Assembly: GCA_050084515.1 (NCBI GenBank)
Contig: CM114271.1
Coordinates: forward strand, 25,916,001 to 25,980,000
Length of the DNA: 64,000 bases
From: Blasia pusilla
Taxonomy: Eukaryota
Direction of reading: 5' to 3'
Positions 7,945 through 49,390 of this stretch are shown in pieces (positions within the stretch are counted from its first letter, which is position 1; each line of letters starts with the position of its first letter). Position numbers and translations under genes: made by a program. Below the pieces are notes generated by a model, which searched no databases, had not been told where the DNA came from, and saw nothing but the letters and a program-made list of their open reading frames with translations.

Positions 7945-9450
7945 TGTTACATCTTATTTTGACGTAGGTAGAGTCCTATTGCGTCGAAGATATAGAGAGT
8001 CGCGGGATGTTCGGGTGTAACTTTTTCCCGAGATGTGGGATGAGGTTGGTGACAGGTTTTTTGTGTCGGGAATGTCATTTATGGCGATTTTTCTATTTTG
8101 GTTTTAGTCCATGAGGTGACCCATTGACTGAGTCAACGGTCACCCAGTAAACTGTGCACGCAGGTTATCGTTGGTAGGGCTATTTTTGGGGGAAGAGCCT
8201 TTTGGCTCTTCCCAAGGGTATAAGAGTGAGAGAGATGGCTTTCTCAAGCCATCTTTCTAATGTTGAGCCTTAGGCGCGCCTCTATTGCGTAGACGTGTGT
8301 GGGTGTGTAAGAGTTAGGGTGCTAACATCCAGATTCCCTCATAGCAGAGGGTGGGTGTGGTTTTATATACCGATGTAGATTCATGAGTGGAGTTTTAAGC
8401 TAGGTGAGCCGTTTTTACTACTCTTCATTTTACATGAGAAAGATGCAAGGGGGCATGGGGGAATTCCTTTTTTGCAGGTAGGCAAGCGAGTTGCCCCAGT
8501 TGGGGAGCCCCTCGAGACATCTGTGTGGCATTTGGTGTGTTGTTTTCTGTTCGAAAGGTTTTGCGCGGAAGAGCTGTCCATTTTCTCAGATCTTGTTGGT
8601 GCGGATTGAGAGGGGACATCAGTAGAGTGTAGTGTGACGCGTGGCGACAAATGTTCGCGAGCGACTGTCATGAAACAGAGGAAAGGAGCTGAATTAGGTC
8701 TTGCAGTTTAAGGGGGCTACCAAGTAAAGACGGCCAGGCTAGGTTGTAGCCACCTAGGTCGAGCAAGTTATGTCGGAGTTTTAGGTCCGAGCGGCTGGGC
8801 AAGGAGTGGAGAGATTCGTTGCAAACTCAGATGGGAGGGGAGTATCGGGCGCGTCTAGACCAAGAGGCCGCAGACGCTGAAAGGTGAGTAGCCGTGTGTG
8901 TGGACCGTTTTGACGGGGTGTTGAAGCCGAGCTCGGTCACCGGAAGGTAGTAGAGGAAAGCATCGTGGGGCTGGCCACATAGGATGGTATGCATACAGCC
9001 ACGGGTTTTTTAGAAGGTGGAGAGCGGAAGGTACATACGTACCTGCTAGGTAGATTGTACTTGTGGGCATTTAAGGCGGGGTAGTGTCCATAGGGACGCG
9101 CGCTTGAGCAAAATAGAGGGCAGGAACACGCAGACGTAGGGAAAAGTGGGAGGAAGGGACGGGCTCATAGGGAGCCGTGCCCATGGGTGTGGGGGCCACA
9201 GAGTCAAAGCGGACGCGCATGGAAGTTGAGAGGAACGAGAAAGGAAGGAGAGAGGCGCACCCGAAGGCCATACTTTGTCCCGGAATCGCATTCAAGGCGC
9301 CTAGGGTAGCGACTACCTCGAGCTGGGTCGGGCCTAGGTTTCAGGTTCGGGAGCCCCGGGATGGAGAGGTCGCGACGGAGGGTAAAGAGGTCACGGCGGA
9401 AGACAGGGAGGACAGCGTTCGGAGACGGACGGATCTAAACGGACGGCGCT
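7945..9450 (+). mobile_element. 5' portion of a PHD-type Ty3/gypsy element: repeat B (7945-~8431), leader and degenerate gag-like region
   Basis: Begins TGTTACATCT, matching TGTCACATCT at 18595. Homologous to 18595-19069 and, in reverse, to 19079-20386 (shared GGAAGAGCCTTTTGGCTCT, CCGTTTTTACT, GGGCTCATAGGGAGC). Confidence 0.75.
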
Positions 9451-9529
9451 GAACGGACGGGACGGGAGGGTAGGGAGGACGGGGAGGGACGGACAACGTC
9501 CGTTCTTGACGGCGTTAGGGCTCTCGCGG

Positions 9530-14420: not shown

Positions 14421-17400
14421 TTAGTGAGATGGTAGCAATGTTTGGTGTATGTGCTCTATGATCCTCAAGACTTCATTCATTTATGTTCCAAAATTGTGCA
14501 GGGAACCAGGCTACCCCATCTGCAGCCAACTTGCGTCTGCGAGGCACCGTGCAGCAACGCTGGGCTCATCGCAAAAAACAGAAGAAGGCTGCTCTGTTCA
14601 GTAAAGCGAAGGAGCATTCGAAATGGGCAGCGGGCCCGTTTGTACCTATGCCCATTTTGCCAGATCTTTTGATTGCTTTTGAGGGCTATAGGACAGAAGA
14701 ACACGGTCATATCTCATGGGCAGGTTTAGCTAGGATACACGAGTATGAGAAGGTCCGAGAGGAGCTAGAGGGTGCCCTTGTGTGCCCTACCACCACTGTC
14801 AAGGGATGGATTGAGTCGGGCCGCCGGCTTCTCCCTACTACTATCCCTGTAGATAGAGGTCAGCGTTCCACCTACTGGAGATGCATGGCCGCTTTCCATC
14901 ATCTAGCCGCAGTGTGGATCATGGACAGACAGGAACCGTATGATGGGATGCTGGAGCCGAAACCAGGGAGCATCAGGTTGAACATTCCCTGCATGTTCTA
15001 GAAGAAATGAGCAGAGACGGATGCGAGTGTCATCCATGCCGTCACGTCCACGAGTTGGACCATTGCCTACAGAGTTTGTACAAGCATTGGCTGGGGGCGA
15101 GACGAGGAGAGATAGGCACCCATGGACTTCTTGGGACATCGTTCGAGTAGAGAGTGCGAAGGCGGCTAGAGTAGCACATGTTCATTTTTTGGATGTGGAG
15201 CATGGTGTAGGAGGTCAGAGTGGAGTGGCTGTTGCGGAGGTGGCTAGGGTTGCTACATAGCAACCAAAGCCGGAGGTTGCGTCCTCTTCGAGTGAGGTCA
15301 CGATGGAGACTTGGGAGCCTGTGACAGGTCTCAAGTTTATAGAAGGAGAGCGACGGCGAGTTCATAGGTTTTTGAGAGGGCATGTCAGTTGTTTTGCCTT
15401 TAGTATGAGAGACTTGGATACGTTGAAGGGTCCCGGGATACGGATTGAGTTGGCTAGTGATACGCCGATCTTTCGTCGACCCTACAGGTATTCTGATATG
15501 GAGCGAGCCTTGATTCAGAGCAGGAGTCACGACTTGTTGGAGGCAGGACTTGTGGAGTTATCACATGGGCAGTATGCATCTACCACAGTCATGCCAGCGA
15601 AAAAGGATATGTATGGCAATTGGACGGATAGGCGGATGTGTGGAGATTACCGTCCTATCAACCGACAGACGAGGTCAAATCGGTACGCCATGCCTACTCT
15701 TGAGGAGATCTTTGATGCGGTAGGGCATGCAAAGATCTTCAGTACTTTAGATCTCCGTCTTTGGCTATCATCGACTTCCTATCGAGTTGGAGGACAGGAG
15801 AAGACTGAAGATTCGGGGGATAGATCGGTTCGGGAGAGATTGCTTGTATCAGTGGCGGTTCTTACCATTTGGGTTGAAGAACGAGCATGCAAAGTTTCAA
15901 AGAGTGATGGATGGGATTCTGGCTGGCTTGGATTTTGTACGATGTTACATAGATGATATTCTTATCTTCAGTTCCACGGTTGAGGAGCATGAGCGACACT
16001 TGGAGGAGGTGTTTCGGCGATTGCAGTTACATGGACTAAAGTTACATCCAGGCAAGTACAGATTATTTCAGGAGCACATTGAATACTTGGGACACACCAT
16101 ATACCCGAGTGGGTTAGGCGTTCAGCAGACAAAGGTAGAGGCTATTGCGCAGATTCCATGCCCTACAGATGTGAGTCGAGCCCGAGCATTTATTGGACTG
16201 GTGAACTTATATCGACGGTATGTCAAGGGTTTTAGTGCGATCGCAAAGTCTTTGACCTTGTTGACGAGACTTGATCAGGTTTGGTTGTGGGGAGATGATC
16301 AGGAGTGAGCATTTCAGGAGCTCAAGGATAGGTTGACATCCTCACCCATTTTATAAAGACCGATTAGGGGTCACCCATTCCAGTTACATACGGATTGGAG
16401 CATGTTGGGTCTAGGAGCAGTGCTTACTTAGAGGGATGACGAGGAGAGGGAGTTCGTTGTGGCTTACGCGAGCCGATCGAACAACATTGCAAAGGCGAAG
16501 TACGGCTCCTACAAGGGAGAGTGCTTGGCTGCAGTGCGGGCCGTGGCACATTTTAGGTGCTATTTATTCGGCAACCCTTTCACACTTATCACTGATCATC
16601 AGCCGTTGAGGTGGTTGATGGAGTCCGAAAAGCTTACTGGAAAGCTTGCGAGGTGGGCTCTATTACTACAGGAGTATGAGTTTGAGGTGGTTCATAGGCC
16701 AGGTCGGCTGAACCAGGATGCGGATGGGTTGAGTCGTAACTCATGTCCGAGTCAGAGAGACGACACAGGAGCTTGATGGCACGGAGAGAGTGATGAGGAG
16801 ATGGTGCCCGGTTGGCATGCATCTGCCTATCTTTGTTGGTTGACTATGGCAAGTCAGCCACAGGTGATGACTCCAGTGGTGGGGTTGGATGATGAGTCTT
16901 TGGATCCGGAGGTTGGTGAGGAGGCGACAGGTGGTCGTGATATCCATTACGACGTGGAGGTTGTGGAGTTCTTGCGCATTGGCGTCATTGCGAGTACAGA
17001 GAGTGCTAGGGAGCGGGATCGGATCCTACAGAGAGCCAAGAGGTTCAAGTGGGAGGGAACTCACATTTTGCGGGTATGGGGAGATGGTAGGATACGAGTG
17101 GTACCTCATCCTTCCCAGCGAGCACGTGTAGTGCGACATGCCCATGAGGAGTTGGGACATTTTGGAATAAAGCGTACTTACAGCTTACTCCAGGTTCAGT
17201 ATTGGTGGCGCGGCATGCATACTGGGGTACAACAGTTTGTGGCCAGATGTATGGTATGTGATAGAGTGCAAGCATCCTTCAATGCTCCCACTCCGCACTA
17301 ACATCCTTTGCCGATTATGGGTTTAGGTTATCGGTGGAGTTTAGACTTTGCGGGACCTTTGCCATTGACGGGGCGTCATCATAGGTACGTGTTGGTCATG

Positions 17401-18444
17401 GTGGAGCATTTCTCCAAGTGGATACAGTTGGTGGCACTACCAGACAAGGCGAGCGAGGGAACAGCTTATGCGTTTCTAGATCGTGTGCTTAGTCATTTTG
17501 GTGCACCGGCGGAGGTGTTGACTGACCAGGGTATCGAGTTCAAGGGAGAGTTTCAGGCCTTGTGTGATCAGGCGCTGATAGATCACCACACCACGTCCAG
17601 AGATCATCCTGAGGCGGATGGGTTGGCGGAGAGAGTGGTACAAACGGTGAAGAGAGGATTGCGCAAGTATGGCTTGCAGCGGGGACAATTGAGGGAGTGG
17701 GACCTACAGTTGCCATGGTTGGCTATGGGTTATCGCTTTAGTCGGCAGGCATCCTTGGCCTCATTTTCACCGTACTTTTTGCTCTTTGGGAGAGAGCCAG
17801 ATTTACTTGCAGCGATTCGACGTGACATGGCGGAGGTGTTAGATCTTGATGATCCAGATGTATGGGTACAAGCATGTTCTCAGAGGGCATAAGTTTTTCG
17901 TAGAGTTATGCCTATGGCCTTTGAGAACTTAGCTATTGCCCAGCATAGAGATATATTGAGGCACGCGACCATTCGTGGAGGAGGTTATCGTCCAGGGATT
18001 AGGATGTTTCATCCTGGAGATTACGTGTATTTACAGCAGGCGACACCCACGACGCTAGATGTCACTGCAGGGCGCACGATCCTACGTGTGCGCCAGGTAT
18101 TACCGACCGGAGTCCTCATGTTGGAGGGACGGGATGGTATGGTTTGGAAGGATCATGTGCGCAATTGTGCGCCATGTCATCTTCCGAACGTAGATGGGAC
18201 GGTAGATCCGAGCTTGGGAGTGGTACCTGCAGGCTTGAGGTGTATGTTGTGCGGATCTACGAGGGATGGAGCCACCATGTTGGTATGTGATGGTTGTTCT
18301 CGAGGGTGGCATATGTCATGTCAACCCCCTCTTGATGTGGTTCCCACGGGACGATGGATGTGTCCGAGATGTGTATAGGATAGTAGGTCATGTCAGAGAG
18401 ATATGATATTTTCTATCTGGAGTTAGGGGGATCCAACTGCCAGC

Positions 18445-18454
18445 TAGGGGGCGG
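18445..18454 (+). promoter_or_regulatory. Polypurine-tract-like site TAGGGGGCGG
   Basis: Just downstream of pol. The same motif precedes repeat A at ~30532 (+) and 32539-32548 (-). Confidence 0.65.
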
Positions 18455-18592
18455 TTGTGTGATCTCCATGTATATGTATGAGTTGATTTTTTGTACATGT
18501 GTGGATTGACCCGTATGTGGGGAAGATTGGTGTTGTGTGGTGTAGATGAGACCAGCGATGTATGTTGTGTAGCGATATGTATGCGCACGACA
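18455..18592 (+). repeat. Repeat A of the split-LTR element (ends GCGCACGACA)
   Basis: Homologous to 30543-30662 (+), 32411-32538 (-) and 31765-31892 (-). Confidence 0.75.
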
Positions 18593-18594
18593 GC

Positions 18595-19069
18595 TGTCAC
18601 ATCTGAGTAGCCGATAGGTCGAGATCTATCGTGGATAGGGCGTAGGAGCCAACGGACTATCTTGAGTGTAACTTTGTCCCACGGTGTCGGATGAGATTGA
18701 GGATAGGTCCATTGTGTCAGGAACGTCGTTTCTGACAACTTTCATGTTAAAGTTTTTTACAACCGGGTGACTTGTTGACCAGGTCACCCGCCCCTGGTAA
18801 CCTGTGCGCGTAGGTTACCAAGGGGAGGGCTATTTTTAGGGGAAGAGCCTTTTGGCTCTCCCCAACCCTATATAAGAGAGGAAGATGACTTTCCTAAGCC
18901 ATCTTTCTCATGTTGGGCCGTTGGAGCACCTCCCTTGTATGTGTGTGAGTTAGGACTAGGGTGCTAGCGTCCGGATTCCTTGATAGCACAGGGTGGACGA
19001 GGCTCGATATGCCGATGTAGATTGAGGAGTGGAGTTTTAGGCCGGGTGTGCCGTTTTTACTTCTCTTTA
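18595..19069 (+). repeat. Repeat B (starts TGTCAC; contains TATA box at 18869-18875)
   Basis: Near-identical inverted copy at 19926-20386; diverged copy at 7945-8431; fragment at 61382-61442. Confidence 0.85.
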
Positions 19070-19078
19070 TTGTGATCT

Positions 19079-20386
19079 ACTGCCCACGGCCTCGGACCTT
19101 GCCACTCCCCTATGAGCCCTCTAACTACACATGCACGGCTCCCTGTAGAGCCGCGATCTTGTATGGACACATGCCCTATGGAGCTTCATGTGTCCTTGGA
19201 GCTCCGGGCACGCCGCCCTATACGGTCAGCCCTTGCTCCCACCTTGGCTTGCGCGACACGGCTCCCTATGAGCCCGCCCTTATTCCTTCGGACCCCGTTC
19301 GGGCGCGCTGCCCTATGTAGCTGCCCGACTTCTTGGAGCTCCTTGCTCTCGAGTCCCGGCTCTCCCTTCTCTACCGCGGCCTTGGGCCTACGTGGCGCGT
19401 TGAGGGCAGGAAGCCCTATGCGGCTGCGGCCCTGCTTCCTTACATCCTCGGAGTGTGGACCGCCTATCCCTCTGCACCTGGTCCACCTGTGCCAGCTTTA
19501 CTCGTCCCGACCTAGCTACCTCCTGCGCCTTCCTTCCCACGCACACTGCCCTACCCCTAACAGCTGCGCGACCTAACCCTACGCGACCTAGCCGCCCTTT
19601 ACTTGAGAGCCCCGTGACGGATGCAAGCTCTAACTCTTCTCTCTGGGTACTCCCGACATTCCACGAGCTATAAGACGACGTTACTCCTGCCGACACAACC
19701 TGCGCTACACCCTGCTGTTATCCCCCATTGCTGTCCCCCATCAATCCGCACCAGAAAAATCTGAGAAAAACGGACAACGCTTCCGCCCACGACCTTTTGA
19801 ACAGAAAAATGACACACAAAACGTCACACACACATCTCCAGGGACTCCCTAACCAAGGCAACTCGCTTGCCCACCTGCAAACAACGAATTCCCATCAGCC
19901 CCCTGACATCTTTCTCATGTAAAAATAAAGAGTAGTAAAAACGGCACACCCGGCCTAAAACTCCACTCCTCAATCTACATCGACATATCGAGCCTCGTCC
20001 ACCCTCTGCTATCAAAGAATCCGGACGCTAGCACCCTAGTCCTAACTCACACACATACAAGGGAGGTGCTCCAACGACCCAACATGAGAAAGATGGCTTA
20101 GGAAAGCCATCTTCTTCTCTTATATAGGGTTGGGAAGAGCCAAAAGGCTCTTCCCCTAAAAATAACCCTCCCCTTGATAACCTGCGCGCACAGGTTACCA
20201 GGGGCGGGTGACTTGGTCAACAAGTCACCCGGTTGTAAAAAACTTTAACATGAAAGTTGACAGAAACGACGTTCCTGACACAATGGACCTATCCTCAACC
20301 TCATCCGACACCTTGAGACAAAGTTACACTCAAGATAGTTTGCTAGCTCCTACGTCCTATCCACGATAGATCTTGACCTATCGGCT
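19079..20386 (-). mobile_element. Inverted 5' portion of the same family: B, leader and gag-like start
   Basis: 19926-20386 is the reverse complement of 18609-19069 with scattered mismatches. 19079-19925 is homologous in reverse to ~8430-9300. Confidence 0.85.
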
Positions 20387-20888
20387 TCGGTCATAAATAT
20401 GAGAAGATTACAAAAGGGACACACACAAATCATTTCTTGGTAAGAATTCTTTGGTATCCTCTGGCACCTCATATTTGTTAGGAAAATACCCCCATTAACT
20501 AAACTAAAATACATGACATGGTGGAATTTTGCAAGCTACTATACGCACCGGCCTCCATTATGTACATATCGAAGGCATCATTGATGTAAGTTTACTTCGA
20601 CTTCAAGATACCTTCTCAATTGGTCGTTTACCGATCTGAATCGTTACGGCTCTTACAAACACTGCCCTTTTTCTCCCTCTCCACACGTAGATTATTTGAG
20701 TATCGTCCACACGTGTTCATTAAATACTTTCTGTTTATGGTATGAATCAGACCTCACATGACTCCACCGTTAACTCGATCATGAAACGTCGACGATGGTC
20801 CAATTTCGAGTGCCCCCAATCGATACAATCGGAAAATCATGCAGAGACAAACGGTCCAGATCTCATCTTAAGTTTCACTTGTATCAAT

Positions 20889-21719
20889 TTAAAAGTCGCC
20901 GCCACCCATATCGCCGCCCCCGTCACCCGTGTCCCCGCCGTAATCGTTGTCCAGCATCTCCCCCACCAAGAGCCCGCCCAGAGCACCGCCCATCAAGCCG
21001 GTGCCAAAACCGGCACCGCCCCTGCGAGGCCGTTGCTGATAGCCACTTCCCATGGGAGGCCCGTACCCATACGGCGTTTGCTGCATCGGTGGGTAGCCTC
21101 AAGGGCCCCCACAGCCCCCCATACCTCCGCCATACTGAGGCTGGAATTGAGCAGCGGAGAATGCCGCTTGATAGCTGGCAGCCGCTTGCGGAAAGGCTAC
21201 GGGATGATGCCGGCTTCTATGGTGCTGTCGTCGCTGAATCGTTCTCAACTCGCCCAATACGGGATGATACCGGCTTCTATAGTGCTGTTGTCGCTGAATC
21301 GTTCTCAACTCGCCCAATTGTGCAGACATGATTAAACTCCCTTTCACTTTTCCTGAGGGTCGGATGACGGAAAAAGCCCTGATCTGGGCCTCACTACCAT
21401 CTCTGTCAATCTCTCGGAGAGGAATGGTGACAGTTCCCACCAGTTTCTTCTGGAGAGTTCCGTGGCTGTATATCTTCACCGTGATGTAGCAGGGCCGTCC
21501 GTTTCCTTGCAGGAGTTGCTCGTCGCAGGTTAGTGTCAAGGGTGCGTTCCAGGTTGGGTTGAGCCCACCGCTGGTATCCACTCTAGTCGCTTTCTGTTTG
21601 TTGACATAGATATACGCCACCACGTAGCACTTCTGCTCTCCGAACATTTTCACCTTCTTCAAGTCGCTCGCCGACACTAAGTTCAAATTTATCGTCCTCA
21701 CTTCCACCAGTGAACCCAT
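20889..21719 (-). pseudogene. SRC2: Intronless SRC2-like C2-domain protein with an in-frame TGA at 21099-21101
   Basis: N-terminal C2 domain (VSASDLKKV..TRVDTSGGLNPTWN..LVGTVTIPL..FSVIRPSGKVKG), Pro/Tyr/Gly-rich linker and the typical SRC2 tail GTGLMGGALGGLLVGEML..GGGDF in the same frame after the stop. Confidence 0.8.
21198..21317. repeat. 60-bp in-frame tandem duplication inside the SRC2-like CDS
   Basis: Two 60-bp units encode LGELRTIQRQQHYRSRYHPV and LGELRTIQRRQHHRSRHHPV. Confidence 0.95.
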
Positions 21720-23227
21720 CTTCAAAACCAAATCAACAATCAGTTCCCTCTCCAGCTCCAAACTGCCTTGAAACTTGAACGTACTCCAATTCAAACTCGC
21801 GCTCAGGATCGGAGTCACCAATACCCCTCTCCGCACGAGATTGATTCAAGCTTGGTCCGATCCAAACGTACCTATGGACCAACAAGCGATTCACGTTTCA
21901 AAAACGCTCTTCGGTCGTCTACGCGAATTAAAGCTGAAAAGTCTGAAGAGAACCACAAGCTGAAGGCTGTCTTGAGGTAGTCGCTCACAGAGAAAAGAGG
22001 GACGGTCGAATTGACTGTGGAAGTGTGCAAGCGCAGGTCGGCTTGGGATTATATGCTTCTCGGGCGAGCCTGCCTGTGACTGATGATTTCAGGTCAAGGT
22101 CACAGCGCATATGTGCCTTGGGCGCGACGTCTGGTCGGCAGGTCATTCTGCAGTCGTCACGTTACGGGGAAACTAGGATACTAGAAGAAGTACGCGTTGG
22201 ATTGTGTTGCAAGGATCCGGGGTTACGAGTAAGGCTAGCCGGTTAAATCTGAGAATTTCCGATTAATTTTAAAGCTGCCTACGAAAAACCGGTTGTATTT
22301 CGTATCTGAAAACCGGTTCAAAAACCGGACTTTCCGTTTCCGATTTACAATTCCCGGTAATGTACCGGGTCCCGCGAAAAAACTCCCCGAACCCTGGTTG
22401 CAAGACAGAGAAGTGGCCGGTGCGATGCATCTGAGGGTCTTTGAGGAGCTCCAGCGTCCTTCCACTCTTCTACGGTGACATGTCGCACTCACTTACGAGT
22501 GACCTTTCCCTCCTTTCACTTTAACGGGCGCGTTAGGTCACTCCTTTTTCTTACGTGATTATTGGTCTCCATTTTAACCCTTTAAGAGGGGTTTGGGAGA
22601 AAGTAATTAATAAACGCATGGGGACACGAGGATAGCTTAGATGGTGAGAAAAATGATGAGGACATGTAAGGGCAATAACAAAAATGGTGACAAGCAATCA
22701 AAATAATAAGTTAACAATTTGAAATAAATGACAAGAAAACTATTGGTAGTGGTTGGTGAAATATGAATCTTAAATCTTAAATAATACTAATAAGAATGCC
22801 CATGCACCCCATATATAACCGCGGTCTTGATAGGACTACCCTCAACTTGATGCACCCACATCTAAGTTTTGGGTAATCCTTGCCGTGGTGATAATGTGCA
22901 CTCAAGGGATCCTGCAACAACTTACCAAGTAGGGCCTCAAGGGCCTTAAAGCACATGGGTTTGGCTGTCTTTACCATTCATTAGCTCTCACTCCCTAGAA
23001 CCCTTCATGAATTAGATAAAGCTATCGGGGAAGCACTCCAAAGATGAACTCGGATGACTTTGGGACACATCACACAATTTGGAACTTCTCATGAAAGACC
23101 TCCCTTAGTTGGATTATCCATATGTAGAGTAGGTAGCGTGAGAAGAGAGGGATCCTCGCTCAGGTGCAAGTTCTCTTTAAGCATGTAGTGCAGCTTTTAC
23201 GCTCTCGAACTCCTTTGCATCTTCCCC

Positions 23228-29125: not shown

Positions 29126-30283
29126 GGCCTAGAATACCTGGCAAAACCATGGTTATCTCTATTGCGGGCCTAGCAGACATCCCTGCCATCCTAGCAGCCT
29201 CAACTTGCCATGAATCTAAGGTGGACGGCCCAAGCACAGGCTCCAAGGAAAGGTCCACCACCTCCTTTGCACCCACCTTTGAACGTGAGGCAATAACACC
29301 AACTCCACCCTCACATAGCATAATGGCCACCTAGACAACCTCGGCCAGCGTATCTCCCAACATCATAACATTGGAAGCGGAAAACCATGGGGCGTGGTAC
29401 ATGGTACTGGCCGCCTCCAATAATGTACTCGACACATTCTCTCTTTGTAAATCAAGTATCTCCCACACAACAATGTCTCTCCATAGTGCACACAACTCTT
29501 TCTCTCTTTTTCATGTCAAATCAAATCCACTTCTTAATGAGAGGCTTGGATTACACACAAGTTCAAGGAGGACCATAGCTCTGCCATCTCATGCTAAGAG
29601 GTTCAACAAAGAGATAATAAGCTCCAAAGCTCTCTTCCCTCTCTCTTTGAGTATACTCCCTTTCCTCTCCCAAGCTTTCTCCACGGTAATCTATGCTCGC
29701 AGCTCACCTCCTTGGCAAGGTTGCATGTGGACAAAGTCTGTGTCCGTAGACATGTTCATGTCAGGGGACTTATGTGCGTCTTATGGAAGGACTTGTCCAT
29801 ATGGGCCCCACCTTTCCCTTCTTTCTCATTCCCTTTACTTGCCTTCGTGTTCCATACTCCCCCATTTCTTCCTCCCTCCACCTCCATTCCCTCCTCCCTC
29901 ATTGCTCCTCTCATCCTTGTCTTGCCTTCCATCATGGACTAAAAGTGTGGGTCCCACCTTTTGGAACTGATGTCCAAATTTGTCCGTCCATGTCCATTCT
30001 AAGGAAGGACTTATCTATTTTTGTGCAACCATGCTCCTTGGCTCTTCATCTATTGTAGGAGGTCAAGGGTCAGTTCCCAAAGTAGAAAGTCAACTATACT
30101 CAAAACGGTAACTTTCTTGAAAAAGTAAGTTTCTCTATATGGCTCCAAATGAGCCAAAACGAAGGGAAAACCTACTCTCTCAAGTTATCCATGACCTCAA
30201 CAGATCATCCTCTTGAGGCTCTCCTCCACCATCCACAAAGACACCCAACTTGATCTCGTCGATCTATCCTAATAGAGGGTACA
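29126..30283 (-). mobile_element. 5' portion of a second split-LTR subfamily element: repeat B'' (30283-~29449), leader and gag-like start
   Basis: Minus strand begins TGTACCCTCTATTAGGATAGATCG versus TGTCACGACTTTTTAGAATAGATCG at 32408. Extended homology to 31893-32408. Confidence 0.7.
29716..30033. mobile_element. hAT-type MITE, 318 bp
   Basis: Termini CAAGGTTGCA...TGCAACCATG (9/10 inverted match) and 8-bp TSD CTCCTTGG at 29708-29715 and 30034-30041. The empty site is present in the paralogous repeat at ~32152. Confidence 0.85.
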
Positions 30284-30531
30284 AGAGTGTTAGATCTCTT
30301 CGGAGGGATCAACATAGGCTGCTAGTTGTAGTATTGAAGTGTTGTAGGATGATATCCGGATACATCAATATCTCTAGGTGGAGATACATGAGATCGATCC
30401 ATAGATAAGTATGTAATGGGAGATGTTGCGGGTATGATAGCACTGACGATGTTGGATGTGTATAGAGTAGTAGATCATGTTAGGTAGTTGTGATGTGTGC
30501 TATCTAGAGTTAGAGGGATCAAAATGTCAAC

Positions 30532-30916
<385 letters not shown>

Positions 30917-31049
30917 ATATTTATGACACAATAGGGATGGCAATTTCCCCATTTCTCGTATTTGACAAAAAACGGGGATATTAAAGGACTAGATCACTCG
31001 TATGAAAATCCAGTAATCCCTTTTGAACATTGATGATCATATTTCAGGG

Positions 31050-31760
31050 ATGTTCTTAAGATATTGGTTAATCGATCAAGTATTGTCATGGTATCAATGA
31101 TGGGAGAGATCCTTGATTGGAACAAGTCAAAAATTCACATGGAGCAAAATAAAGCAAGGGCTATTGCAAAATTTCCAAGATGTGGATCCAATCCTCAGTG
31201 CAAGAATGAAATCTGGCGATTGGAGCAGAAAGGTAATGTGGAGGATTGCTTCAAAGAGTTTTGCCACTTACACATATAGATCCGCGACATAAGTGGGGCA
31301 GACATCCTTTATCTCTTTAAGAGAGGTTTGAAGAGAAAGGTGCGTCAAGAAGCGATTCGAGAAAACCCTAAGGATAACAATGAAGTAATCGCATGTGCTC
31401 AAAGTATGGCAAATGTGTATGAAAGAGGAGGAGAGATAGTTGCTTCCATGAACAACCACTACGTATCCACACCCATGGAGTTAGATAACCTTTGAGCACG
31501 AGATGGTCATGCGGCACAAAGATTTAATGAAAGGGAGCCAATGGATAGAGATCAGAACCCCAACATACAAGGGATTTCTCCTCAAACCGACGGGATCGGG
31601 GTTCCTAAAGGAGGGAGAGAATTTTAAGTCTGAAGAGATACACGCCAATTTTTTGAGTGTGGTAGATATGGTCATATAGCCATAAATTTTCATCTTCGTA
31701 GGCTAAAAAAAAGGCCATATCATCACCCTCTTAATCATCTTGAAGAAGGACACATGAAGG
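31050..31760 (+). mobile_element. Degenerate retrotransposon gag fragment
   Basis: EIWRLEQKGNVEDCFKEF segment and zinc-knuckle remnant ECGRYGHIA; multiple stops. Confidence 0.5.
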
Positions 31761-31764
31761 AAGA

Positions 31765-34700
31765 TGTCGTGCGCATACACATTGCTACACAACAAACATC
31801 ATTGTCGACAAACATACACACAAACACGCACGATCCCATGCTAACTCATGGCATCCAAACAACAAGACAAGAAGTACCAAAATATCTCCAATAAATCAGG
31901 ATCCAATCTATCTCCACACCATAGCTCTCAAATGTGTGCACTCTCACATACCTCTTTCAATGTCCAACCAAACCTACTCTCCTAATGAGGGGCTTGGGTT
32001 ACACACATAAGGCAAGAAAGACCATAGCTCCGCTGCCTCATGCCAAGAGGTTCAGTAAATAGAGAATGAGCTCTCAAGCTCTCTCTCCTTGAGGTATACC
32101 CCCTTCCCTCTCCCAAGCTCTCTCCTCACTAACCTATTGCTCGCAGGTCACCTCCTTGGCTCTCGACCTTTTATAGCGGATCAAGGGCCACTTCCCAAAG
32201 TGGAAAGTCAACTATACCAAATATGGAAGCTTACCCAACATAGTAAGTTTCTATATATGGCTCAAAATGAGCCGAAACGAAGGGGAAGCCTGCTCTCTCA
32301 CGTTTTCCGGTACCTCAGCCAATCATCCTCAACCTCCTAAGCCTACCCTCTTCTACTCGTGAAGGCGCTTTACCAGATCTCTCCGATCTATTCTAAAAAG
32401 TCGTGACACCTATCGTGCGCATACTCATCGCTACACAACATACATCGTTGTCGACAAACATACACATAAACACGCACGATCCCATCCTAACTCATGGTAT
32501 CTAAACAATGAGACAAGAAGTACTAAAATATCTCCAATCGCCCCCCTAGCTGGTGGTTAGGTTCCTCTTACTCCATATAGCCATCTATTCCTACCTACCA
32601 TGACATACATCTCTCGGACACTAAGAGCAAGAAGGCCGAGGACTAGTACTCATGTGGCTCCATTGTTAGTCGTCTTCTTGTCATCCATGTCATATACACA
32701 AGTTGGAATGTAGAACTACCTACTTTATGTACATCTAGCACACATCCATCGTCCCTGAGGAATCCTAGTGAGAGGTGGCGTCAAGCGTGCCATATGCCAT
32801 CCTCTCGAATATCCATCACAGACTAGTATAATGGTTGCCTAAACATACATCGCAAGCCTGCAGGAAAAACTGTTTCGCTTAGATCAACTGTACCGTCAAT
32901 ATTCAGAAGGTGACATGGCGCACAATTATGCACATGGTCCTTCCAAACCATACCATCGCGTCCCTCCAATAAGAGAACACATGATGGCAAAACCTCACGC
33001 ACTCTCAAGATAGTGCGCCCTACAGTCACATCCAACGTTGTGGGTACCGTCTGCTGCAAGTAGACATAGTCTCCCTGATAACCATACCCCCCTCCCCCCC
33101 CGCCCCCCCCTGCGCAAGTAGTTGCATACCTCAATGTATCCCAATGTTGGGCAATCGCCAAGTTCTCAAAGGACATGGGCATCACTTTCCAAAACAATTA
33201 AGCCCTCTCTGAACATGCTCTCATCCATACATCAGGGTCATCAAGGTTCAACACCTCACCAACATCTCGACAAATAGTCGCAGGTAAATCTGGCTCTAGG
33301 CCATACAAAAGCAAGTACGATGAGAAAGACGCTAAGGATGCTTGCTTGCTGAATCTATATCCCATCGCCAACCATAGCAAATGGAGGTCCCAATCCCCTA
33401 GGAGACCTCTCTGCAAGCCATACTTGCGTAATCCTCTCTTCATCATCTACACAACTCGCTCTGCTTGTCCATCCGCCTCGGGATGATCTCGCAAAGTAGT
33501 GCGATGGTCGATCAGTGTCTAATCACACAAGGCGTGAAACTCTCTATGAAACTCTCCGTGAAAATCTGTACCTTGGTATGTAACCAGCTCAGCTAGTGCG
33601 CCGTAATGACTCAACACTCCATCTAGGAAGGCATATACTACTCCCTCACTCGCTTTGTCAGGCAATACAACTAACTCTATCCACTTTGAGAACTTCTCGA
33701 CCATCACCAACACATAACCATTATGGCGCTCTGTCAAAGGCAAAGGTCGTGCAAAATCCAAACCTAGTTTATAACCTAAACCCATGATCGGAAGTGGATG
33801 GAATTATGGAGTCACAACATTGAACGATGCTCAGAATGGATCACACACCATGCACCTGGCAACAAACTGCTGAAAGTAAGTCTGCATGCCTCGCCACCAA
33901 TACTTTATCTAGAGCAAGCTGTACGTCCGCTTCACTCCAAAATGACGGAACTCCTTATGGGCATGACGCAACAAACATGCTCTCTGCGGAGGATGAGGCA
34001 CCATACGCACTCTACCATCCTCCCAAACTCGCAACACATGTGTCCCCTCCCACTGGAACCGTCTTGCTTGGTGTAGGATTCGATCCGGCTCTCTAGCACC
34101 CATAGTGCTCGCGACGCTGCTTGTACGCAGTTACTCCAAGACCACTCCGTCGTCATGAATGTCTCGACCACTTGTCGTCTCCTCAATGGATCTAAGGACT
34201 CTCTATCAGACCTCGCCATTAAAGTCTCAACAATCTGGCTTTCCATAGCCAACAAGCCCAAATAGATTGACGCATGTCATCCTGGCACCAACTCCTCATC
34301 ACTATCACTATGCCAACGAGCTTCAATTGCATCTCGCTGACTCGAGAATGGGTTACGGCTCAAACCATCTGCATCCTGGTTGAGCGTCCCAGGTCTATGC
34401 ACCATCTAGAAGTCATACTCCTGCAATAAAAGAGCCCACCACTCAAGCTTCCGTGTAAGCTTGTCGGATCCCATCAACCACTTAAGTGGCTGATGATCAG
34501 AAATGATGGTAAAGGGTTTTCCAAATAGATAATACCTGAAATGTGCGATAGCCCATACGGTAGCCAAGCACTCACCCTCATACGAGCTATACTTTTCCTG
34601 TGTAGTGTTGTTTGAGCGTCTAGCGTGAGCCACTATGAACTCCCTACCATCATCTTCATGTAAGGTGAGCATGGCTCCAAGCCCAAACATGCTCCAATAG

Positions 34701-36100
34701 GTATGGAACTGGAAAGGACGCCCCCTGATCGGTCTCCTCAATATGGGCGCAGAAGTCAATATGTCCTTAAGCATCTAAAATGCTCTCTCTTGCTCATCCC
34801 CCTAGTGCCACTCTTGATCCACCTTGGTCATCAAGGTTAGCGGCTTCAAAATTGAACCAAAACCCTTGACCTTCCGTCGATAAAGTTTGTGCATGCCAAT
34901 CCTATGCATGCACGAACTTGACTCACATCTGTAGGGCATGGAATGCGTGAAATAGCCTCCACCTTTTTTTGGTGCACACCAAGTTCCCCGGGATATATCG
35001 TATGACCCAATTACTCAATCTGGTCATAGAAGAACTTGCACTTGCCGGGATGTAGCTTCAGCCCATGTAACTGCAATCGTTGAAACACCTCCTCTAGATG
35101 TCGCTCATGCTCCTCAATCGTGGCGCTAGAGACTACGATGTCATCAATATAACACCTAGAAAAATGGAGACCTACCAAGATCTTATCTATGATCCTCTGA
35201 AACTCAGTCGGGGCATTCTTTAACCCAAATGGTAAGAATCGCCACTGATACAAACAATCCTTCCTATGAGAATCGATGCCCCAAAATGCCGTCTTCTTCC
35301 TGACCTCCAATCTAAGAGGCAGCTAATGGTATCCGGCTCCCAAATCCTATGAACTGAAGATCTTTGCATGCCCAATCGCATCAAAGATCTTCTTAAGGGT
35401 GGGCATGGCATACATATCAGACTTTGTCTGCCGATTGATAGGTCGGTAATCTCCACACATCTGCCTATGCGTCCCGTTGCCATGCATATCCTTCTTGGCA
35501 GGCATGATAGTGGCAGATGCATACTCTCCATGCGACATCTCCACTAGTCATGCTCCAACCAAGTCTTGGATCCTACTCTAAATCAGAGCCCTGTCCATGT
35601 CACTGTACCCGTAGGATCCTTGGAAGATCGGCATGTTACTCGATAACTGAATGCAGATGCGTGGACCCTTCAGCATACACAAATCATGCATATTAAATGC
35701 AAAATGGCTCCTATAACTCTAAGGAACTCGTATATCCAGCGCCGCTCTCCTCCTGCCAACTTAGGGCCCATATCTGGCGCCCAAGTCTCCATCTTGACTA
35801 CGGTAGGACTCTCCAACGCGGGTGTCGGTGGTTGCTATGGTGCAACCTTGTCTAGGACAACCAAACTCGACTTATCCCCTGTAGCTAACAACAAAATTGG
35901 ATCTCCATGTGTAGTATCTGAAACCACGGGCGATGGGATTCCCCATAGGAGTGACGGCAGTATCGTCACTATCAGAGGCATCATGACGTCATGTTTTGGG
36001 TCAGGAAATGGACCTGAATTGCATGACATGGATTTTCAACTTAGGAGTAGCTGAGGAGCGTCATTTGAAGATGCGACACTCGCTTATCGGCGTTAGGCTC
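31765..36100 (-). mobile_element. Degenerate PHD-type Ty3/gypsy element with 3' end PPT-A-B-A ending in CA at 31765
   Basis: RT (QMCGDYRPIN, LPFGLKNAP, YIDD), RNaseH, integrase (GLDFARP) and PHD remnant ILVCDGYSRGWHM..WMCARC (32725-32855). A copies at 32411-32538 and 31765-31892 (both 128 bp) flank B'' at 31893-32408. 5' end truncated. Confidence 0.92.
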
Positions 36101-42298: not shown

Positions 42299-43574
42299 TG
42301 TCGTATAGTAAAATCATCTAGTATGTAAAATCTTTCCTCGTTAAGTGTTAGATAGAGTTTTATTAGTGTTAAGTAAATTAGCTTAGGAAAAGGAAATTCC
42401 CATGTTTAAACCTCATTATGGTGCCTCTTTCATGCGGGCCCAACTTTAGGAAAAGACGTAAGAAATAAAAGATGACTTTATAAAAGTAAAGTAGTGAGGT
42501 TAATGCTTTAATGAAAAGCAAAAGTAGTATTCGTTGGTGGTTAGGGTAGTTGGGGTAATTTGGAAAATATCAAGTAGATAAATGAGGATATTTTGGAAGA
42601 GATAAGAGGAAATCTATTTGTGTCAAAATGTGATTGGCTAAGTCTTGAGAGGAAGCCATATGGCACAAGATAAGATTAGCTTTATTTTGTACTCTTGTGG
42701 ATCCCTTGTAAGTATATAAAGAGGAGGTACCTTCAAGGGTTCATCACCTTCTATTTAAAATCTTGAGTCTTTCGTGTCACTCTTGAGTGTATGGCTTTGG
42801 GATTGCTTGCTCTTCCAATGAGAGTGGATCACATCTTTTGGGAGAATAACTTGACCATTGTCTATTCTTCAAGAGTTTTCTAGAGTGTGGTATGTGTGGA
42901 GATGAGAGGCTTGTCACCTTAGAGGAGTTTAGTCATACTAAAAAAGTGAATTTTTTGGCTTGTTACTTTCCCAATGAGAGTGGATTATCCCTCTTGGGAG
43001 AATAACTCCGCCAAAACCCATTCTTGAGGAGAGTAGAGAATGTTTGTCAAGCATGGATAGGGGTGGAGCACGAGTTGTGCCTGAATTTCCTCTCCTCAAT
43101 CCATACCATGTCAAGAAACTTTTTGTAGATAGGCACTGGTTCACTCGATATTTAGTTTATCACTTTGGGAAGGCGTTCATGAACCAGGTCATTCAATATC
43201 CAACTCCGATGATCCTTCCTATCGTCACATATGGAAGGATATGGGATTGTACTTTGTATGTCCTTATATAGCAATCCATGAACGTCAATAGGCCTGCTCA
43301 AGTAGGGTTTAACACTAGTTGTGCGATCTTCCTCGTGTATAAGCGTAAAGAATTTTATAGGGATTTTATAGGTAGGAATTTCGGGATCCGATGTTACAAA
43401 AAAGTGATCGCCTCGGTACTTCCATTTGTGATACCTATCGTGAGAGATTGGAGAGTATACATAATAATTTTGTATTGAAAAAGGATAACTTCTTAGAGAT
43501 TTCCCCTCGCATGGACCACGTCAGCCATAGCTAGAAGATTTGCTCTTACTCAAAGAAAGGCTCTCGATACGACA
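42299..43574 (+). mobile_element. Complete LTR, 1276 bp
   Basis: Termini TGTCGTAT...ATACGACA and internal TATATAAA. The first ~725 bp recur inverted at 44563-45287. Confidence 0.85.
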
Positions 43575-44562: not shown

Positions 44563-45287
44563 GAATGGGTTTTGGCGGAGTTATTCTCCCAAGAGGGATA
44601 ATCCACTCTCATTGGGAAAGTAACAAGCCAAAACATTCACTTTTTTAGTATGACTAAACTCCTCTAAGGTGACAAGCCTCTCATCTCCACACATACCACA
44701 CTCTAGAAACCTCTTGAAGAATAGACAATGGTCAAGTTATTCTCCCAAAAGATGTGATCCACTCTCATTGGAAGAGCAAGCAATCCCAAAGCCATACACT
44801 CAAGAGTGACACGAAAGACTCAAGATTTTAAATAGAAGGTGATGAACCCTTGAAGGTACCTCCTCTTTATATACTTACAAGGGATCCACAAGAGTACAAA
44901 ATAAAGCTAATCTTATCTTGTGCCATATGGCTTCCTCTCAAGACTTAGCCAATCACATTTTGACACAAATAGATTTCCTCTTATCTCTTCCAAAATATCC
45001 TCATTTATCTACTTGATATTTTCCAAATTACCCCAACTACCCTAACCACCAACGAATACTACTTTTGCTTTTCATTAAAGCATTAACCTCACTACTTTAC
45101 TTTTATAAAGTCATCTTTTATTTCTTACGTCTTTTCCTAAAGTTGGGCCCGCATGAAAGAGGCACCATAATGAGGTTTAAACATGGGAATTTCCTTTTCC
45201 TAAGCTAATTTACTTAACACTAATAAAACTCTATCTAACACTTAACGAGGAAAGAGTTTACACACTAGCTGATTTTACTATACGACA
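44563..45287 (-). mobile_element. Partial inverted copy of the 42299 LTR
   Basis: Reverse complement of 42299-43023 with only a handful of mismatches. Confidence 0.95.
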
Positions 45288-48200: not shown

Positions 48201-49390
48201 AGTTGTGTCGAGGAGTATTTTTCAAATTGGGAGTTGATGAAGAGTATCGAAGATGCTTGGAAGCAAAAGAAATTCCCCACGTTATTAGGGCCATGCATAT
48301 GGCTGATTTCGGAGGACACTATGCCGTTAAGAATATAGTCAAGAAAATATTGGCTGCACGTTACTCGTGGTCAACCATGTACAGGGATGTAGGCCAATTT
48401 ATTCAGAGTTGTGATGCATGTCAAAGAGATGGCCGACCCACTGCTACCTCACGGTGGCCTTTGGTGCCAATCATGCCCCTAACTCCTTTTGAAAAATGGG
48501 GTATTGATTTTTTGGGCCCTATTTCCCAAGCTACCCGCCAAACAAGGCAGAAGTATATTCTTATAGCCACCAACTACTATACTAAGATGGTCGAGGCTAT
48601 GGCAACACGCGAAGACGACAGTGAGGCGGTGGCCAAATTCTTATACGAAATGATTATCACCAAGTATGGCTGCACGTTGGAGTTGGTAAGTGATCGTGGC
48701 ACGCACTTCTTGAACATAAATATTGGGTTGCTAACTTCCCACTTTTTAATCAAGTATCGGAAGATCACGCTGTATGACCCTAAAGCCAATAGGTTAACAA
48801 AAAAATTTAATGGACTTATCTATCGGATTCTAAATCGCTTGACGGTTACATATTCTTATGATTGGGACGCAAAAATTCCAACGGCATTGAGGGCCTATCA
48901 AACATCAAAGAAGTTTACCATCAAGTATTACACATTTTATCTTACCTATGGAGTTCAACCGTTGACTCCTATTGAATGGGATTTGCCCACTTATCGTGTG
49001 TTGGAGGAGAATAGAACGGAAGACGCTGTAGGGGCTCTTCAGGGGAGGAATAAGACCTTGGTAGCATTGGAGGAAGCACAGGTCTTAGCCCAACATCAGA
49101 CCAAACTCGTACAAGCCGAACGGAAATAACGATATGACCGACACTTACGGCCGTAATCTATAAGTATAGGGGACCTGGTGTAGCAGTATGATAATCGCCG
49201 GTTGAAATTCCCCGAGAAGTTAAAATTGAACTGGATCGGACTCTACCATGTATTAGCAATATATGATAATGGATCACTACAGTTGGAAACCTTGAAAGAA
49301 GAAGCACTACCGACTCGCGTCATTGGCATGCATGTTTGACGGTATCATCAACCACAACCCTACCTTGACTCAAATCTGAGGGGGGGGGTT
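45288..49390 (+). mobile_element. Degenerate Ty3/gypsy pol (RT-RNaseH-integrase), interrupted by a solo LTR
   Basis: RT VIPF|GLCSVPATF..FLDDF, RNaseH PFHVYVDTS, integrase 48089-49129 (HMADFGGH..CDAC, WGIDFLGP, SDRGTHF) and a G-tract at 49378-49388. Confidence 0.92.
46132..47136. mobile_element. Solo LTR (1005 bp) with 5-bp TSD GTTTG
   Basis: TGTCGTG...CACGATA termini; GTTTG at 46127-46131 and 47137-47141. Removing it restores the RT PFGL motif. Homologous to 51277-52658. Confidence 0.92.

Follow-up and report, generated by a model that had tools for sequence, protein, structure and literature searches.

We analyzed a 64,000-nucleotide window of the Blasia pusilla genome (GCA_050084515.1, contig CM114271.1, positions 25,916,001 to 25,980,000 of the forward strand; coordinates below are those of the window), in which several copies and fragments of Ty3/gypsy retrotransposons are found. 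Downstream of its decayed pol, a copy on the minus strand carries a polypurine tract (PPT) followed by a short repeat (A1), a 2-nt spacer, a long repeat (B), and a second copy of the short repeat (A2). BLAST aligned 32538-32413 (A1) with 31892-31767 (A2) at 91.3% identity over 126 bp (E value of 1e-46). For reference, we refer to the plus-strand copy as family 1, to the minus-strand copy with the complete A-B-A arrangement as family 2, and to the elements represented by B' as the third family.

Table. Retrotransposon features in the window.
Feature	Coordinates	Strand	Description
PPT	32541..32551	-	AGCTAGGGGGG; 2 nt (CG) upstream of A1; the same motif precedes A at 18442-18451 and 30530-30539, in outside record L069, and in contigs C148 and C201 of outside record G001
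A1	32411..32538	-	Internal copy of the short repeat; starts ATTGGAG, ends GCGCACGATA
Spacer	32409..32410	-	GG here, GC in the plus-strand copy and in all outside relatives; lies inside the CA-NN-TG palindrome
B (3' copy)	31893..32408	-	Long repeat; starts TGTCACGAC; carries a TATA-like CTATAAAAGG; 79% identical to B' at 30212-30034 and 29716-29506
A2	31765..31892	-	Terminal copy of A, ends GCGCACGACA; right end of the integrated element
pol, family 2	32731..35850	-	RT, RNase H, integrase, and PHD; decayed, with frameshifts and stops; 72% nucleotide identity to 15297-18372
5'-type B, family 1	7945..8427	+	Starts TGTTAC (TGTTACATC...CTCTTCA); no A before or after; followed by TTTTACATGAGAAAGATG and the leader
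pol, family 1	15261..18378	+	RT, RNase H, integrase zinc finger, DDE core (D,D35E present), and C-terminal PHD finger; one reading frame from 15751 holds 6 in-frame stops
3' end, family 1	18442..19080	+	PPT (18442-18451), A (18455-18592, ends GCGCACGACA), GC, B (18595-19069), then TTGTGATCTAC (19070-19080), resembling the start of A (TTGTGTGATCTCC), then a break
Inverted 5'-type B, family 1	19926..20393	-	95% identical to the 3' B of the plus-strand copy; leader runs down to about 19081
B', third family	29448..30283	-	5'-type B, starts TGTACC (TGTACCCTC...GATTTA); no A on either side; followed by CAAAGAGAGAATG
Third fragment	30440..30663	+	End of pol, PPT, and A (78% identical to family 1 A, z = 29); the tail of A is replaced by a (CA)n(CT)n microsatellite and no B follows

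Coding capacity and relatives

In the plus-strand copy, Pfam profiles RVT_1, RT_RNaseH, Integrase_H2C2, and rve were found in that order within 15751-17892, which is the domain order of Ty3/gypsy elements (Metaviridae). The integrase core (rve; E value of 1.9e-14) contains the motifs SLDFAG, LTDQG, and AERVV, with 35 residues between the second D and the E, and is followed by a C-terminal PHD finger (E value of 2.9e-9). The closest long relatives are green-algal polyproteins with a C-terminal PHD finger (Haematococcus, Pleodorina, and Chlamydomonas; 42 to 48% identity), while the nearest named relatives are liverworts and a moss; most of the 120 hits listed in each of two homology searches carry PF00628. 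We found no tyrosine recombinase. None of the 120 listed relatives carries PF00589, and a Pfam search of the three forward frames of 8650-15302 found nothing, although gag and protease were not detected there either, and thus sensitivity on this decayed copy is low.

Arrangement and boundaries of the repeats

To ask where the repeat ends, we mapped raw reads from about 1% of a whole-genome run (30,650 reads at 85% identity or more). Depth per read orientation rose from 76 to 90 in bin 31705-31765 to 1,274 to 1,279 in bin 31766-31826, placing a sharp boundary, a jump of about 15- to 20-fold, exactly at 31765/31766, whereas depth ran on unbroken through the B|A2 joint. At the end of A, 1,221 loose ends were found at 31765; their reverse-complemented consensus is NN+TGTCACGTCTTTTAGGATAGATCGG, the start of B, with an agreement of 0.46, indicating a mixture. 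Another 985 loose ends at 32413 had an AT-rich consensus with an agreement of 0.38, indicating heterogeneous flanks. No uniform leader or primer-binding site (PBS) sequence follows A. Junctions between flank and the start of B could not be read from these data, because this copy diverges from its family at 32315-32375 (depth of about 70 per orientation). Reads from an RNA run covered the element at a depth of mostly about 25 to 175 per bin.

The three 5'-type B copies in the window, which belong to family 1 and the third family and not to family 2, lack A on both sides. Upstream, the largest z in 12 comparisons was 3.3, a score below that of the best shuffle; downstream, z ranged from -0.9 to 0. 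Both 5'-type copies of family 1 continue after the same B end with TTTT(T)ACATGAGAAAGATG, in contrast to the 3' B of that family, which is followed by the 11 nt resembling the start of A. The last 36 nt of A are 33/36 identical between window families whose pol is only 72% identical (z = 13), as expected of an integrase-binding end.

The layout recurs in two unrelated public assemblies. Outside record L069 (L068 is the same locus from a second sample), with a pol 57 to 78% identical to that of the window over most segments, reads PPT-A1-GC-B-A2 and then AT-rich flank, with A1 and A2 94 to 96% identical. In outside record G001, contig C148 reads PPT-A1-GC-B, 21 nt (TGGCGATTTGCC...), A2, and then flank, with A1 and A2 identical at 105/105 positions. 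Contig C201 of the same record is about 90% identical over this region, but there B continues into leader and a gag-like ORF, and so both predicted contexts of the end of B occur within one family. That A1 and A2 are identical within a copy but only 100/105 between copies suggests that A is duplicated at each transposition. The closest outside pol (L049) has its 3' UTR interrupted by another insertion, and a scan of contigs with a 14-mer across the junction returned 120 loci, 119 of which were chance matches in prokaryotic DNA and only one of which (L136) encoded the pol.

The junction between the end of A and the start of B, CGACA-GC-TGTCA, is a palindrome. Its 10-mer core, GACAGCTGTC, occurs 19 times, in 19 of 80 loci of distant relatives, whereas pooled shuffles gave a mean of 0.53 and a maximum of 2. 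It lies downstream of pol in 18 of the 40 loci that hold at least 1 kb after the PHD end, although the LTR sequences themselves cannot be aligned.

We saw no copy with both ends and a target-site duplication (TSD), although TG at the start of B and CA at the end of A are present. An RNA read pile gave the uninterrupted sequence of the flanking repeat at 31765, but a search of the window for its continuation found 0 matches at up to 3 mismatches, and the best local matches were unrelated; tblastx detected no more of the element beyond 35850. The 5' end of the minus-strand copy is therefore absent or outside the window. The 5' and 3' B of the plus-strand element are only 74% identical, while its 3' B is far closer to the neighboring inverted B, and this copy is therefore rearranged or chimeric rather than a clean single insertion. 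A PPT is present in every copy, but no convincing tRNA-type PBS was found after the 5' B in the window: the sequence there is purine-rich and has no TGG, the plant initiator-tRNA PBS motif gave only chance-level hits (3 found, 4.85 expected), ARAGORN found no tRNA genes, and no k-mer is shared by the three leaders. In C148, B ends ...CACCCA and the 21-nt stretch that follows starts with TGG.

Inferred integration from a circular or tandem-LTR intermediate

We interpret these elements as Ty3/gypsy retrotransposons of an old green-lineage clade, recognized here by homology, whose DDE integrase carries a C-terminal PHD finger. The repeat that reverse transcription would define as the LTR is A-NN-B (here, LTR*), which begins right after the PPT and ends where the 5' leader begins. 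In this view, integrated copies are circular permutations of the conventional form, beginning at the TG of B and ending at the CA of A (B-leader-gag-pol-PPT-A-NN-B-A), and the two integrated ends therefore sit back to back inside LTR* as the conserved palindrome. The most likely mechanism is that linear cDNA (LTR*-internal-LTR*) acquires a tandem LTR*-LTR* junction, as in a 2-LTR circle, and that the integrase then cuts after CA on both strands of the palindrome in one LTR*, leaving recessed CA-3'OH ends with 2-nt 5' overhangs, the normal substrate for strand transfer, after which the permuted molecule would be inserted. The architecture, the exact right end, the two contexts of the ends of A and of B, and the conservation of the palindrome are demonstrated by our data, whereas the circular or tandem intermediate, cleavage by integrase, and the position of the PBS are inferences, made without observation of circular DNA or biochemistry. 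A circle with two LTR* holds two palindromes, and cutting the other one would give B-A-NN-B-internal-PPT-A, a form that we did not observe. We give this explanation a probability of roughly 0.6.

The repeat arrangement that a sequence-only reading had described, namely A-B-A after the PPT on the minus strand, A-B with a short A-like start in the plus-strand copy, and 5' ends at 7945 and 30283 with B only, is confirmed. Its interpretation is partly supported: the split layout in a DDE-integrase element holds and is strengthened, and its comparison with the split direct repeats of PAT and Ngaro elements is formally correct, but the proposed ligation of a 2-LTR circle and its opening at the CA-NN-TG site by integrase, while it fits the data best, is not shown. 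The possibility it had named as fatal, that A2 is a one-off duplication or a nested solo insertion, is excluded; although only one copy in the window shows the complete A-B-A, the arrangement occurs in L069 and C148 and, truncated, in family 1, and the end of A is a frequent end of the repeat in the genome.

Among the alternatives, a head-to-tail concatemer is the least unlikely. Here, the basic unit would be B-internal-PPT-A (TG...CA) with no terminal repeats, replicated like a pararetrovirus from greater-than-unit-length templates, with integrated copies being stretches of a concatemer or rolling product cut at palindromes and B-A2 a second unit with an internal deletion. Head-to-tail paths do occur in outside contigs L036 (three successive units, with B1 and B2 only 80% identical), L038 (period of 8,847 bp, 99.9% identity over 3,518 bp), L060, and C201; contigs L019, L026, and L070 close on themselves; and the third fragment in the window has PPT-A with no B after it. 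However, short-read assembly through identical repeats also produces such paths, and contigs that run pol-PPT-A-GC-B-leader (C201, L036, L038, and L060) fit a conventional A-NN-B LTR equally well. The B|A joint is precise, with the U5 end against the U3 start in two window families and in L069, and U5-21 nt-U3 in C148, which blunt joining of two LTR* predicts and random internal deletion does not. The roughly equal numbers of A-to-NN-B and A-to-flank junctions in the reads also fit one extra B-A per element.

Two conventional readings are very unlikely. If the LTR were B-A, which has canonical TG...CA ends and short terminal inverted repeats (TGTC...GACA), A1 would be only an extra copy of the LTR tail between the PPT and the 3' LTR, and the 5' LTR would be B-A followed by the PBS; yet the 5'-type B copies in the window are followed by sequence unrelated to A, B runs straight into leader and gag in C201, reads show no uniform PBS or leader sequence after A, and plus-strand priming at the PPT would also copy A1 into the 5' LTR. 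If the LTR were instead A-NN-B at both ends, with the palindrome only a conserved internal motif and with A2 and the missing 5' A reflecting damage after insertion, the start of A right after the PPT and the CACCCA at the end of B followed by TGG in C148 would be as expected for an LTR defined by reverse transcription, and the algal contigs do not contradict this. However, for the bryophyte-type families it is contradicted by the four 3' B copies examined (families 1 and 2, L069, and C148), which are all followed by A rather than by flank, by the three 5' B copies that lack A, by the depth boundary at the end of A2, and by A end-to-flank junctions that number about a thousand or more in a 1% sample.

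Comparison with known systems and implications

With the letters swapped, the repeat topology is that of the split direct repeats (A1-internal-B1-A2-B2) of the tyrosine-recombinase retroelements PAT, Ngaro, and VIPER (PMC4157794). Those elements encode a tyrosine recombinase and no DDE integrase, whereas this element has an rve-type D,D35E integrase with a zinc finger and a PHD finger, TG...CA ends, and a PPT. It shares the RT-RNase H-integrase order, PPT, and TG...CA ends with conventional Ty3/gypsy elements, but these have two complete identical LTRs in direct orientation, while the copies here have B at the 5' end and A-NN-B-A at the 3' end. Chlamyvir, a green-algal clade of such elements, is described as chromodomain-bearing and specific to algae (PMC6317226), whereas the nearest named relatives here are liverworts and a moss. 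There is precedent for integrase cutting palindromic LTR-LTR junctions, in foamy virus and in HIV-1 in vitro (PMC1180852 and PMC1905944), and for an internal circle junction in the Panganiban-Temin experiment (PMC11054761), and integration can proceed from a circular or permuted molecule. In retroviruses, the junction exists only in dead-end or side-path circles and has 4 nt between CA and TG, and linear DNA is the precursor; here, the junction is part of the inherited element, has a 2-nt spacer, and appears to be the regular source of the integrated ends. We found no description of a DDE-integrase LTR element with split or permuted repeats in the literature searched; Repbase-type consensus annotations could bear on novelty. 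The LTRs of Dictyostelium DGLT-A are reportedly built of A/B modules, which PMC5006619 did not bear out.

We speculate, more tentatively and with somewhat less than even odds, that a whole clade of DDE-integrase Ty3/gypsy retrotransposons running from chlorophyte algae to bryophytes integrates as a rule from circular or tandem-LTR DNA opened by the integrase at an att-att palindrome (CA-GC-TG) inside the LTR. This would be a natural form of the abandoned circle-junction model of retroviral integration, and the clade would have arrived independently at a split-repeat layout so far known only from tyrosine-recombinase retroelements.

If the main interpretation is correct, this would be the first LTR retrotransposon with a retroviral-type integrase whose inherited structure is a circular permutation of the LTR-internal-LTR form, and it would show that an integrase can use an internal end-to-end junction as its regular substrate. 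Because LTR finders look for two matching terminal repeats, they would set the wrong boundaries for these elements or miss them, as the sequence-only reading had anticipated, and dating insertions from LTR pairs would fail; the family is very abundant in this genome, at about 15 to 35 times the read depth of the neighboring repeat. The split-direct-repeat layout would no longer be diagnostic of tyrosine-recombinase elements, and extrachromosomal circles, usually treated as dead ends, would be productive intermediates for this clade.

Repeat layout and coding content in the window

On the minus strand, the decayed pol is followed by a polypurine tract (PPT), a first copy of the short repeat A (A1), the dinucleotide GG, the long repeat B, and a second copy of A (A2). 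BLAST aligned 32538-32413 with 31892-31767 at 91.3% identity over 126 bp. The sequence-only reading had described this A-B-A arrangement, and that observation held, with the coordinates and the terminal CA as it had given them.

Coordinates of the features discussed in the text (positions in the window unless a contig is named)
Feature	Position	Strand	Detail
Minus copy (family 2), end of decayed pol	near 32731	-	
Minus copy, PPT	32551-32541	-	AGCTAGGGGGG, then CG
Minus copy, A1	32538-32411	-	ends GCGCACGATA; followed by GG
Minus copy, B	32408-31893	-	starts TGTCACGAC
Minus copy, A2	31892-31765	-	ends GCGCACGACA
+ copy (family 1), pol reading frame	15751-18378	+	six in-frame stops
+ copy, PPT	18442-18451	+	followed by CGG
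+ copy, A	18455-18592	+	ends GCGCACGACA; followed by GC
+ copy, 3' B	18595-19069	+	starts TGTCACATC; last bases CTCTTTA
+ copy, stretch of the leader	9386-10206		tandem-repeat block at 9535-10052
5'-type B, family 1	7945-8427	+	
5'-type B, family 1	20393-19926	-	
5'-type B, third family	30283-29448	-	
Third fragment: end of pol, PPT, and A	30440-30663		no B follows
Microsatellite, (CA)n then (CT)n	30663-30915		follows GTGTAGCGA
Repeat flanking the minus copy	30930-31764	+	
Shared 15-mer	20391-20404 and 30913-30927		TCTCATATTTATGAC
Inverted repeat of 725 bp	42299-43023 and 44563-45287		99.3% identity; arms 1.5 kb apart
Second gypsy-type element	46132-52651	+	
Its integrase zinc finger and core	48089-49126		
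Its direct repeats	46132-46879 and 51277-52023		74.5%
Near-perfect initiator-tRNA primer-binding site (PBS) motif	51263-51274	-	TGGTATTAGAGC
Possible host gene fragment	534-1817	-	428-aa open frame
Possible host gene fragment	21102-21845	-	248-aa open frame
Metagenome contig L069, A1	3459-3573		ends GTATTCGCACGACA; followed by GC
Metagenome contig L069, A2	3913-4027		ends GTATTCGCACGACA
Metagenome contig L036, head-to-tail algal relative	1-210		

A second, better preserved copy lies on the + strand. Its single pol frame encodes the C-terminal part of RT (E 5e-20), RNase H (1e-24), the integrase zinc finger (4e-17), the rve core (2e-14), with D, D, and E spaced as D,D35E, and a C-terminal PHD finger (3e-9). 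Pfam found nothing in the three forward frames of 8650-15302, although gag and protease were not detected there either, so this search has little power on such a decayed copy. None of the 120 listed long relatives carries a tyrosine-recombinase family. The best long relatives are green-algal polyproteins at 42 to 48% identity, whereas with the integrase-PHD part alone the nearest named proteins come from liverworts (Calypogeia, 80% and 71%; Riccia, 75%; Marchantia, 64 to 78%), a moss (Sphagnum, 62%), and Klebsormidium (about 50%). Many algal relatives (listed proteins P0001 to P0076) carry a cytosine-5 DNA methyltransferase domain (PF00145) between RNase H and integrase, and a few carry nucleoside or thymidylate kinase domains; the copies in the window have no such insert.

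The layout recurs in the + copy, which reads PPT-A-GC-B. After the last bases of B, this 3' copy continues with TTGTGATCTAC, which resembles the start of its own A (TTGTGTGATCTCC), and the sequence then breaks off. The two 5'-type copies of the same B instead continue after the same point with TTTT(T)ACATGAGAAAGATG and a shared leader. The tandem-repeat block in the leader of the + copy (about 70 to 76% self-identity) creates long open frames on both strands that are low-complexity and not genes. In the third fragment, the tail of A has turned into a (CA)n(CT)n microsatellite, which starts exactly in the conserved tail (CACACA... directly after the last preserved bases of A); the tail GCGCACGACA may have seeded it. 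The 15-mer TCTCATATTTATGAC lies both at the outer edge of the inverted 5' B and just after this microsatellite, which may be due to chance (about 7 shared 15-mers are expected in a window of this size) or may mark a preferred target site.

None of the three 5'-type B copies has A-like sequence in the 200 nt upstream (in 12 comparisons, the largest z was 3.3, and that score was below the best shuffle), and none has A-like sequence downstream (z of -0.9 to 0). By contrast, the last 36 nt of A are 33/36 identical between families 1 and 2 (z = 13), while the rest of A and all of B cannot be aligned between these families, and their pol is only 72% identical. The starts of B also share a motif (ATAGRTCG...GAGATC). 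Conserved stretches of about 35 nt at the start of B and at the end of A are what one expects of the two ends that an integrase binds.

The window holds other repeats and possible host sequences. The 725-bp inverted repeat may be a young DNA transposon or a foldback. A different gypsy-type element on the + strand has its own integrase and direct repeats, with the near-perfect initiator-tRNA PBS motif on the minus strand. Possible fragments of host genes lie among the repeats; the first has a weak match to the start of an ABC-transporter domain, and the second has a C2 domain (E 3e-12).

Reads from the same species and copies in other assemblies

Whole-genome raw reads (about 1% of one run), two sets of contigs, and one RNA run were aligned to 31400-33200 at 85% identity or more. 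Depth per read orientation was 76 to 90 in bin 31705-31765 and 1,274 to 1,279 in bin 31766-31826, and the high-copy repeat therefore ends exactly at the CA of A2. Among the six best-supported sets of loose ends, two large piles of partly matching reads sit at the end of A. The loose part of 1,221 reads at 31765, reverse-complemented, reads two bases and then TGTCACGTCTTTTAGGATAGATCGG, the start of B, with an agreement of only 0.46, so this pile is a mixture; the loose part of 985 reads at 32413 is AT-rich with an agreement of 0.38, so these are heterogeneous flanks. Across the genome, then, the end of A is followed either by NN-B or by unrelated DNA, in roughly equal numbers, and not by one uniform leader sequence. 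Eleven contigs of run X3 show the end of B followed by CAAA, the same continuation as that after the 5'-type B of the third family. This copy diverges from its family at 32315-32375, near the start of B (depth of about 70 per orientation).

Depth in the best-matching bins was about 3,100 to 4,500 for B (31949-32131, both orientations summed), about 4,400 to 5,200 for A1 plus A2 together, and 2,300 to 3,200 for the best internal bins, which is compatible with a 2:2:1 ratio, but the measure is too rough to rely on. RNA reads cover the element almost entirely in one orientation, opposite to that of the flanking repeat, from which we infer sense transcripts if the library is a standard stranded one. 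The flanking repeat (depth of about 60 per orientation) has strong RNA coverage (220 to 316) in the orientation opposite to the element, and 252 RNA reads run on past 31766 with one uniform sequence, so they show the uninterrupted ("empty") site. Pfam found nothing in the one frame of this repeat that was searched.

A scan of metagenome contigs with an alignment of relatives gave 80 loci, of which L049, L069/L068 (the same locus from two samples), L059, and L050 are the closest to the window by pol. L069 reads from the end of the PHD finger through ACCACCAGCTAGGGGGG and TGA into A1, GC, B (TATCATGACC...), A2, and then AT-rich flank. A1 and A2 are 94 to 96% identical, and the A tail is 87 to 90% identical to the A tails in the window.

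A 14-mer across the junction picked out one relevant contig among 120 mostly chance hits in prokaryotic genome bins. Its pol is 63% identical to that of the window, and a search of its bin found a second contig. Contig C148 reads PPT-A1-GC-B-TGGCGATTTGCCCTTCTCTCC-A2 and then other sequence, with A1 and A2 identical at 105 of 105 positions. Contig C201 is about 90% identical over this region and has the same PPT-A-GC-B, but after ...CTTGACACCCA it continues into a leader and a gag-like ORF, and its A differs from that of C148 at 5 of 105 positions. Thus, within one family, the end of B has exactly two continuations: A followed by flank, or leader followed by gag. A1 and A2 are more alike within a copy than between copies, as LTR pairs are. 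In C148, B ends in CA and is followed by a 21-nt stretch that begins with TGG before A2 starts, which looks like a PBS retained at a junction between U5 and U3.

A palindrome at the junction of A and B

In the + copy and in every outside copy that has the junction, the end of A and the start of B form ...(C/T)GACA-GC-TGTCA..., while the minus copy has GG as its spacer. The 10-mer core GACAGCTGTC occurs 19 times, in 19 of the 80 metagenome loci (620 kb), whereas 30 pooled shuffles gave a mean of 0.53 and a maximum of 2. It lies downstream of pol in 18 of the 40 loci that hold at least 1 kb after the PHD end. L069 has a mutated version, so these counts are lower bounds. These relatives share only about 40 to 45% pol identity with the element in the window, and their LTR sequences are otherwise unrelated.

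Several of the contigs run from the end of pol through PPT-A-GC-B into the next leader and gag: the algal relatives L036, with three successive units whose B copies are 80% identical, and L038, with a period of 8,847 bp at 99.9% identity; and L060. Three further contigs (L019, L026, and L070) close on themselves, with terminal overlaps of 122 to 127 bp.

Interpretation of the permuted repeats

By the usual rules, the repeat that reverse transcription creates starts after the PPT and ends before the leader, and that repeat is A-NN-B. Integrated copies, however, start at B and end at A, and they carry one intact A-NN-B plus one extra A after the 3' B. The total repeat content equals two A-NN-B units, and the order is what one gets by joining the two ends of the linear cDNA (B end to A start) and reopening the molecule at the CA-NN-TG site of the repeat next to the leader. 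We consider the architecture about 85% secure on the evidence of sequences and reads; the joining of cDNA ends and the opening of a circle by integrase are inferred from that layout, at about even odds. The interpretation in the sequence-only reading is partly supported: its structural claim holds, while the integration of a circular cDNA fits the data best but is inferred.

Cutting after CA on both strands of CA-GC-TG would leave recessed CA-3'OH ends with two-base 5' overhangs, which is the structure of processed retroviral ends. Two-base extensions were found in retroviral integration intermediates, whereas four-base extensions were predicted for a retroviral circle junction (PMC11054761). 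Integrase cleavage of palindromic LTR-LTR junctions has been reported for foamy virus and for HIV-1 integrase (PMC1180852, PMC1905944). Retroviral circle junctions can retain PBS sequence. The 21-nt insert beginning with TGG in C148 fits an imprecise circle junction.

An alternative hypothesis based on concatemers, or on a pararetrovirus-like cycle, remains possible. The head-to-tail contigs may be real arrays, or the assembler may have walked through a repeat, and they do not decide between the models. A circle with two repeats holds two palindromes, and the product of cutting the other one was not seen. No copy with both ends, and so no target-site duplication, was seen. The 5' and 3' B of the + element are only 74% identical, while its 3' B is 95% identical to the neighboring inverted B, and that locus is therefore rearranged. 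The complete A-B-A and the 5'-type B copies in the window belong to different families, and the link within a single family comes from the outside bin (C148 and C201) and from the truncated + copy. The sequence after the 5' B in the window is purine-rich and lacks TGG.

Literature searches, which did not extend to supplementary files, found no description of a DDE-integrase LTR element with this layout. The algal gypsy clade Chlamyvir is described as chromodomain-bearing and specific to algae (PMC6317226), whereas the clade seen here, as judged from sequence similarity alone, carries a PHD finger and reaches into bryophytes. The topology itself is already known and matches the split direct repeats of PAT, Ngaro, and VIPER elements (PMC4157794), which encode tyrosine recombinases. 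What differs is the element that carries it, which is a Ty3/gypsy element by every protein criterion that we tested and fails only the criterion of two complete LTRs.
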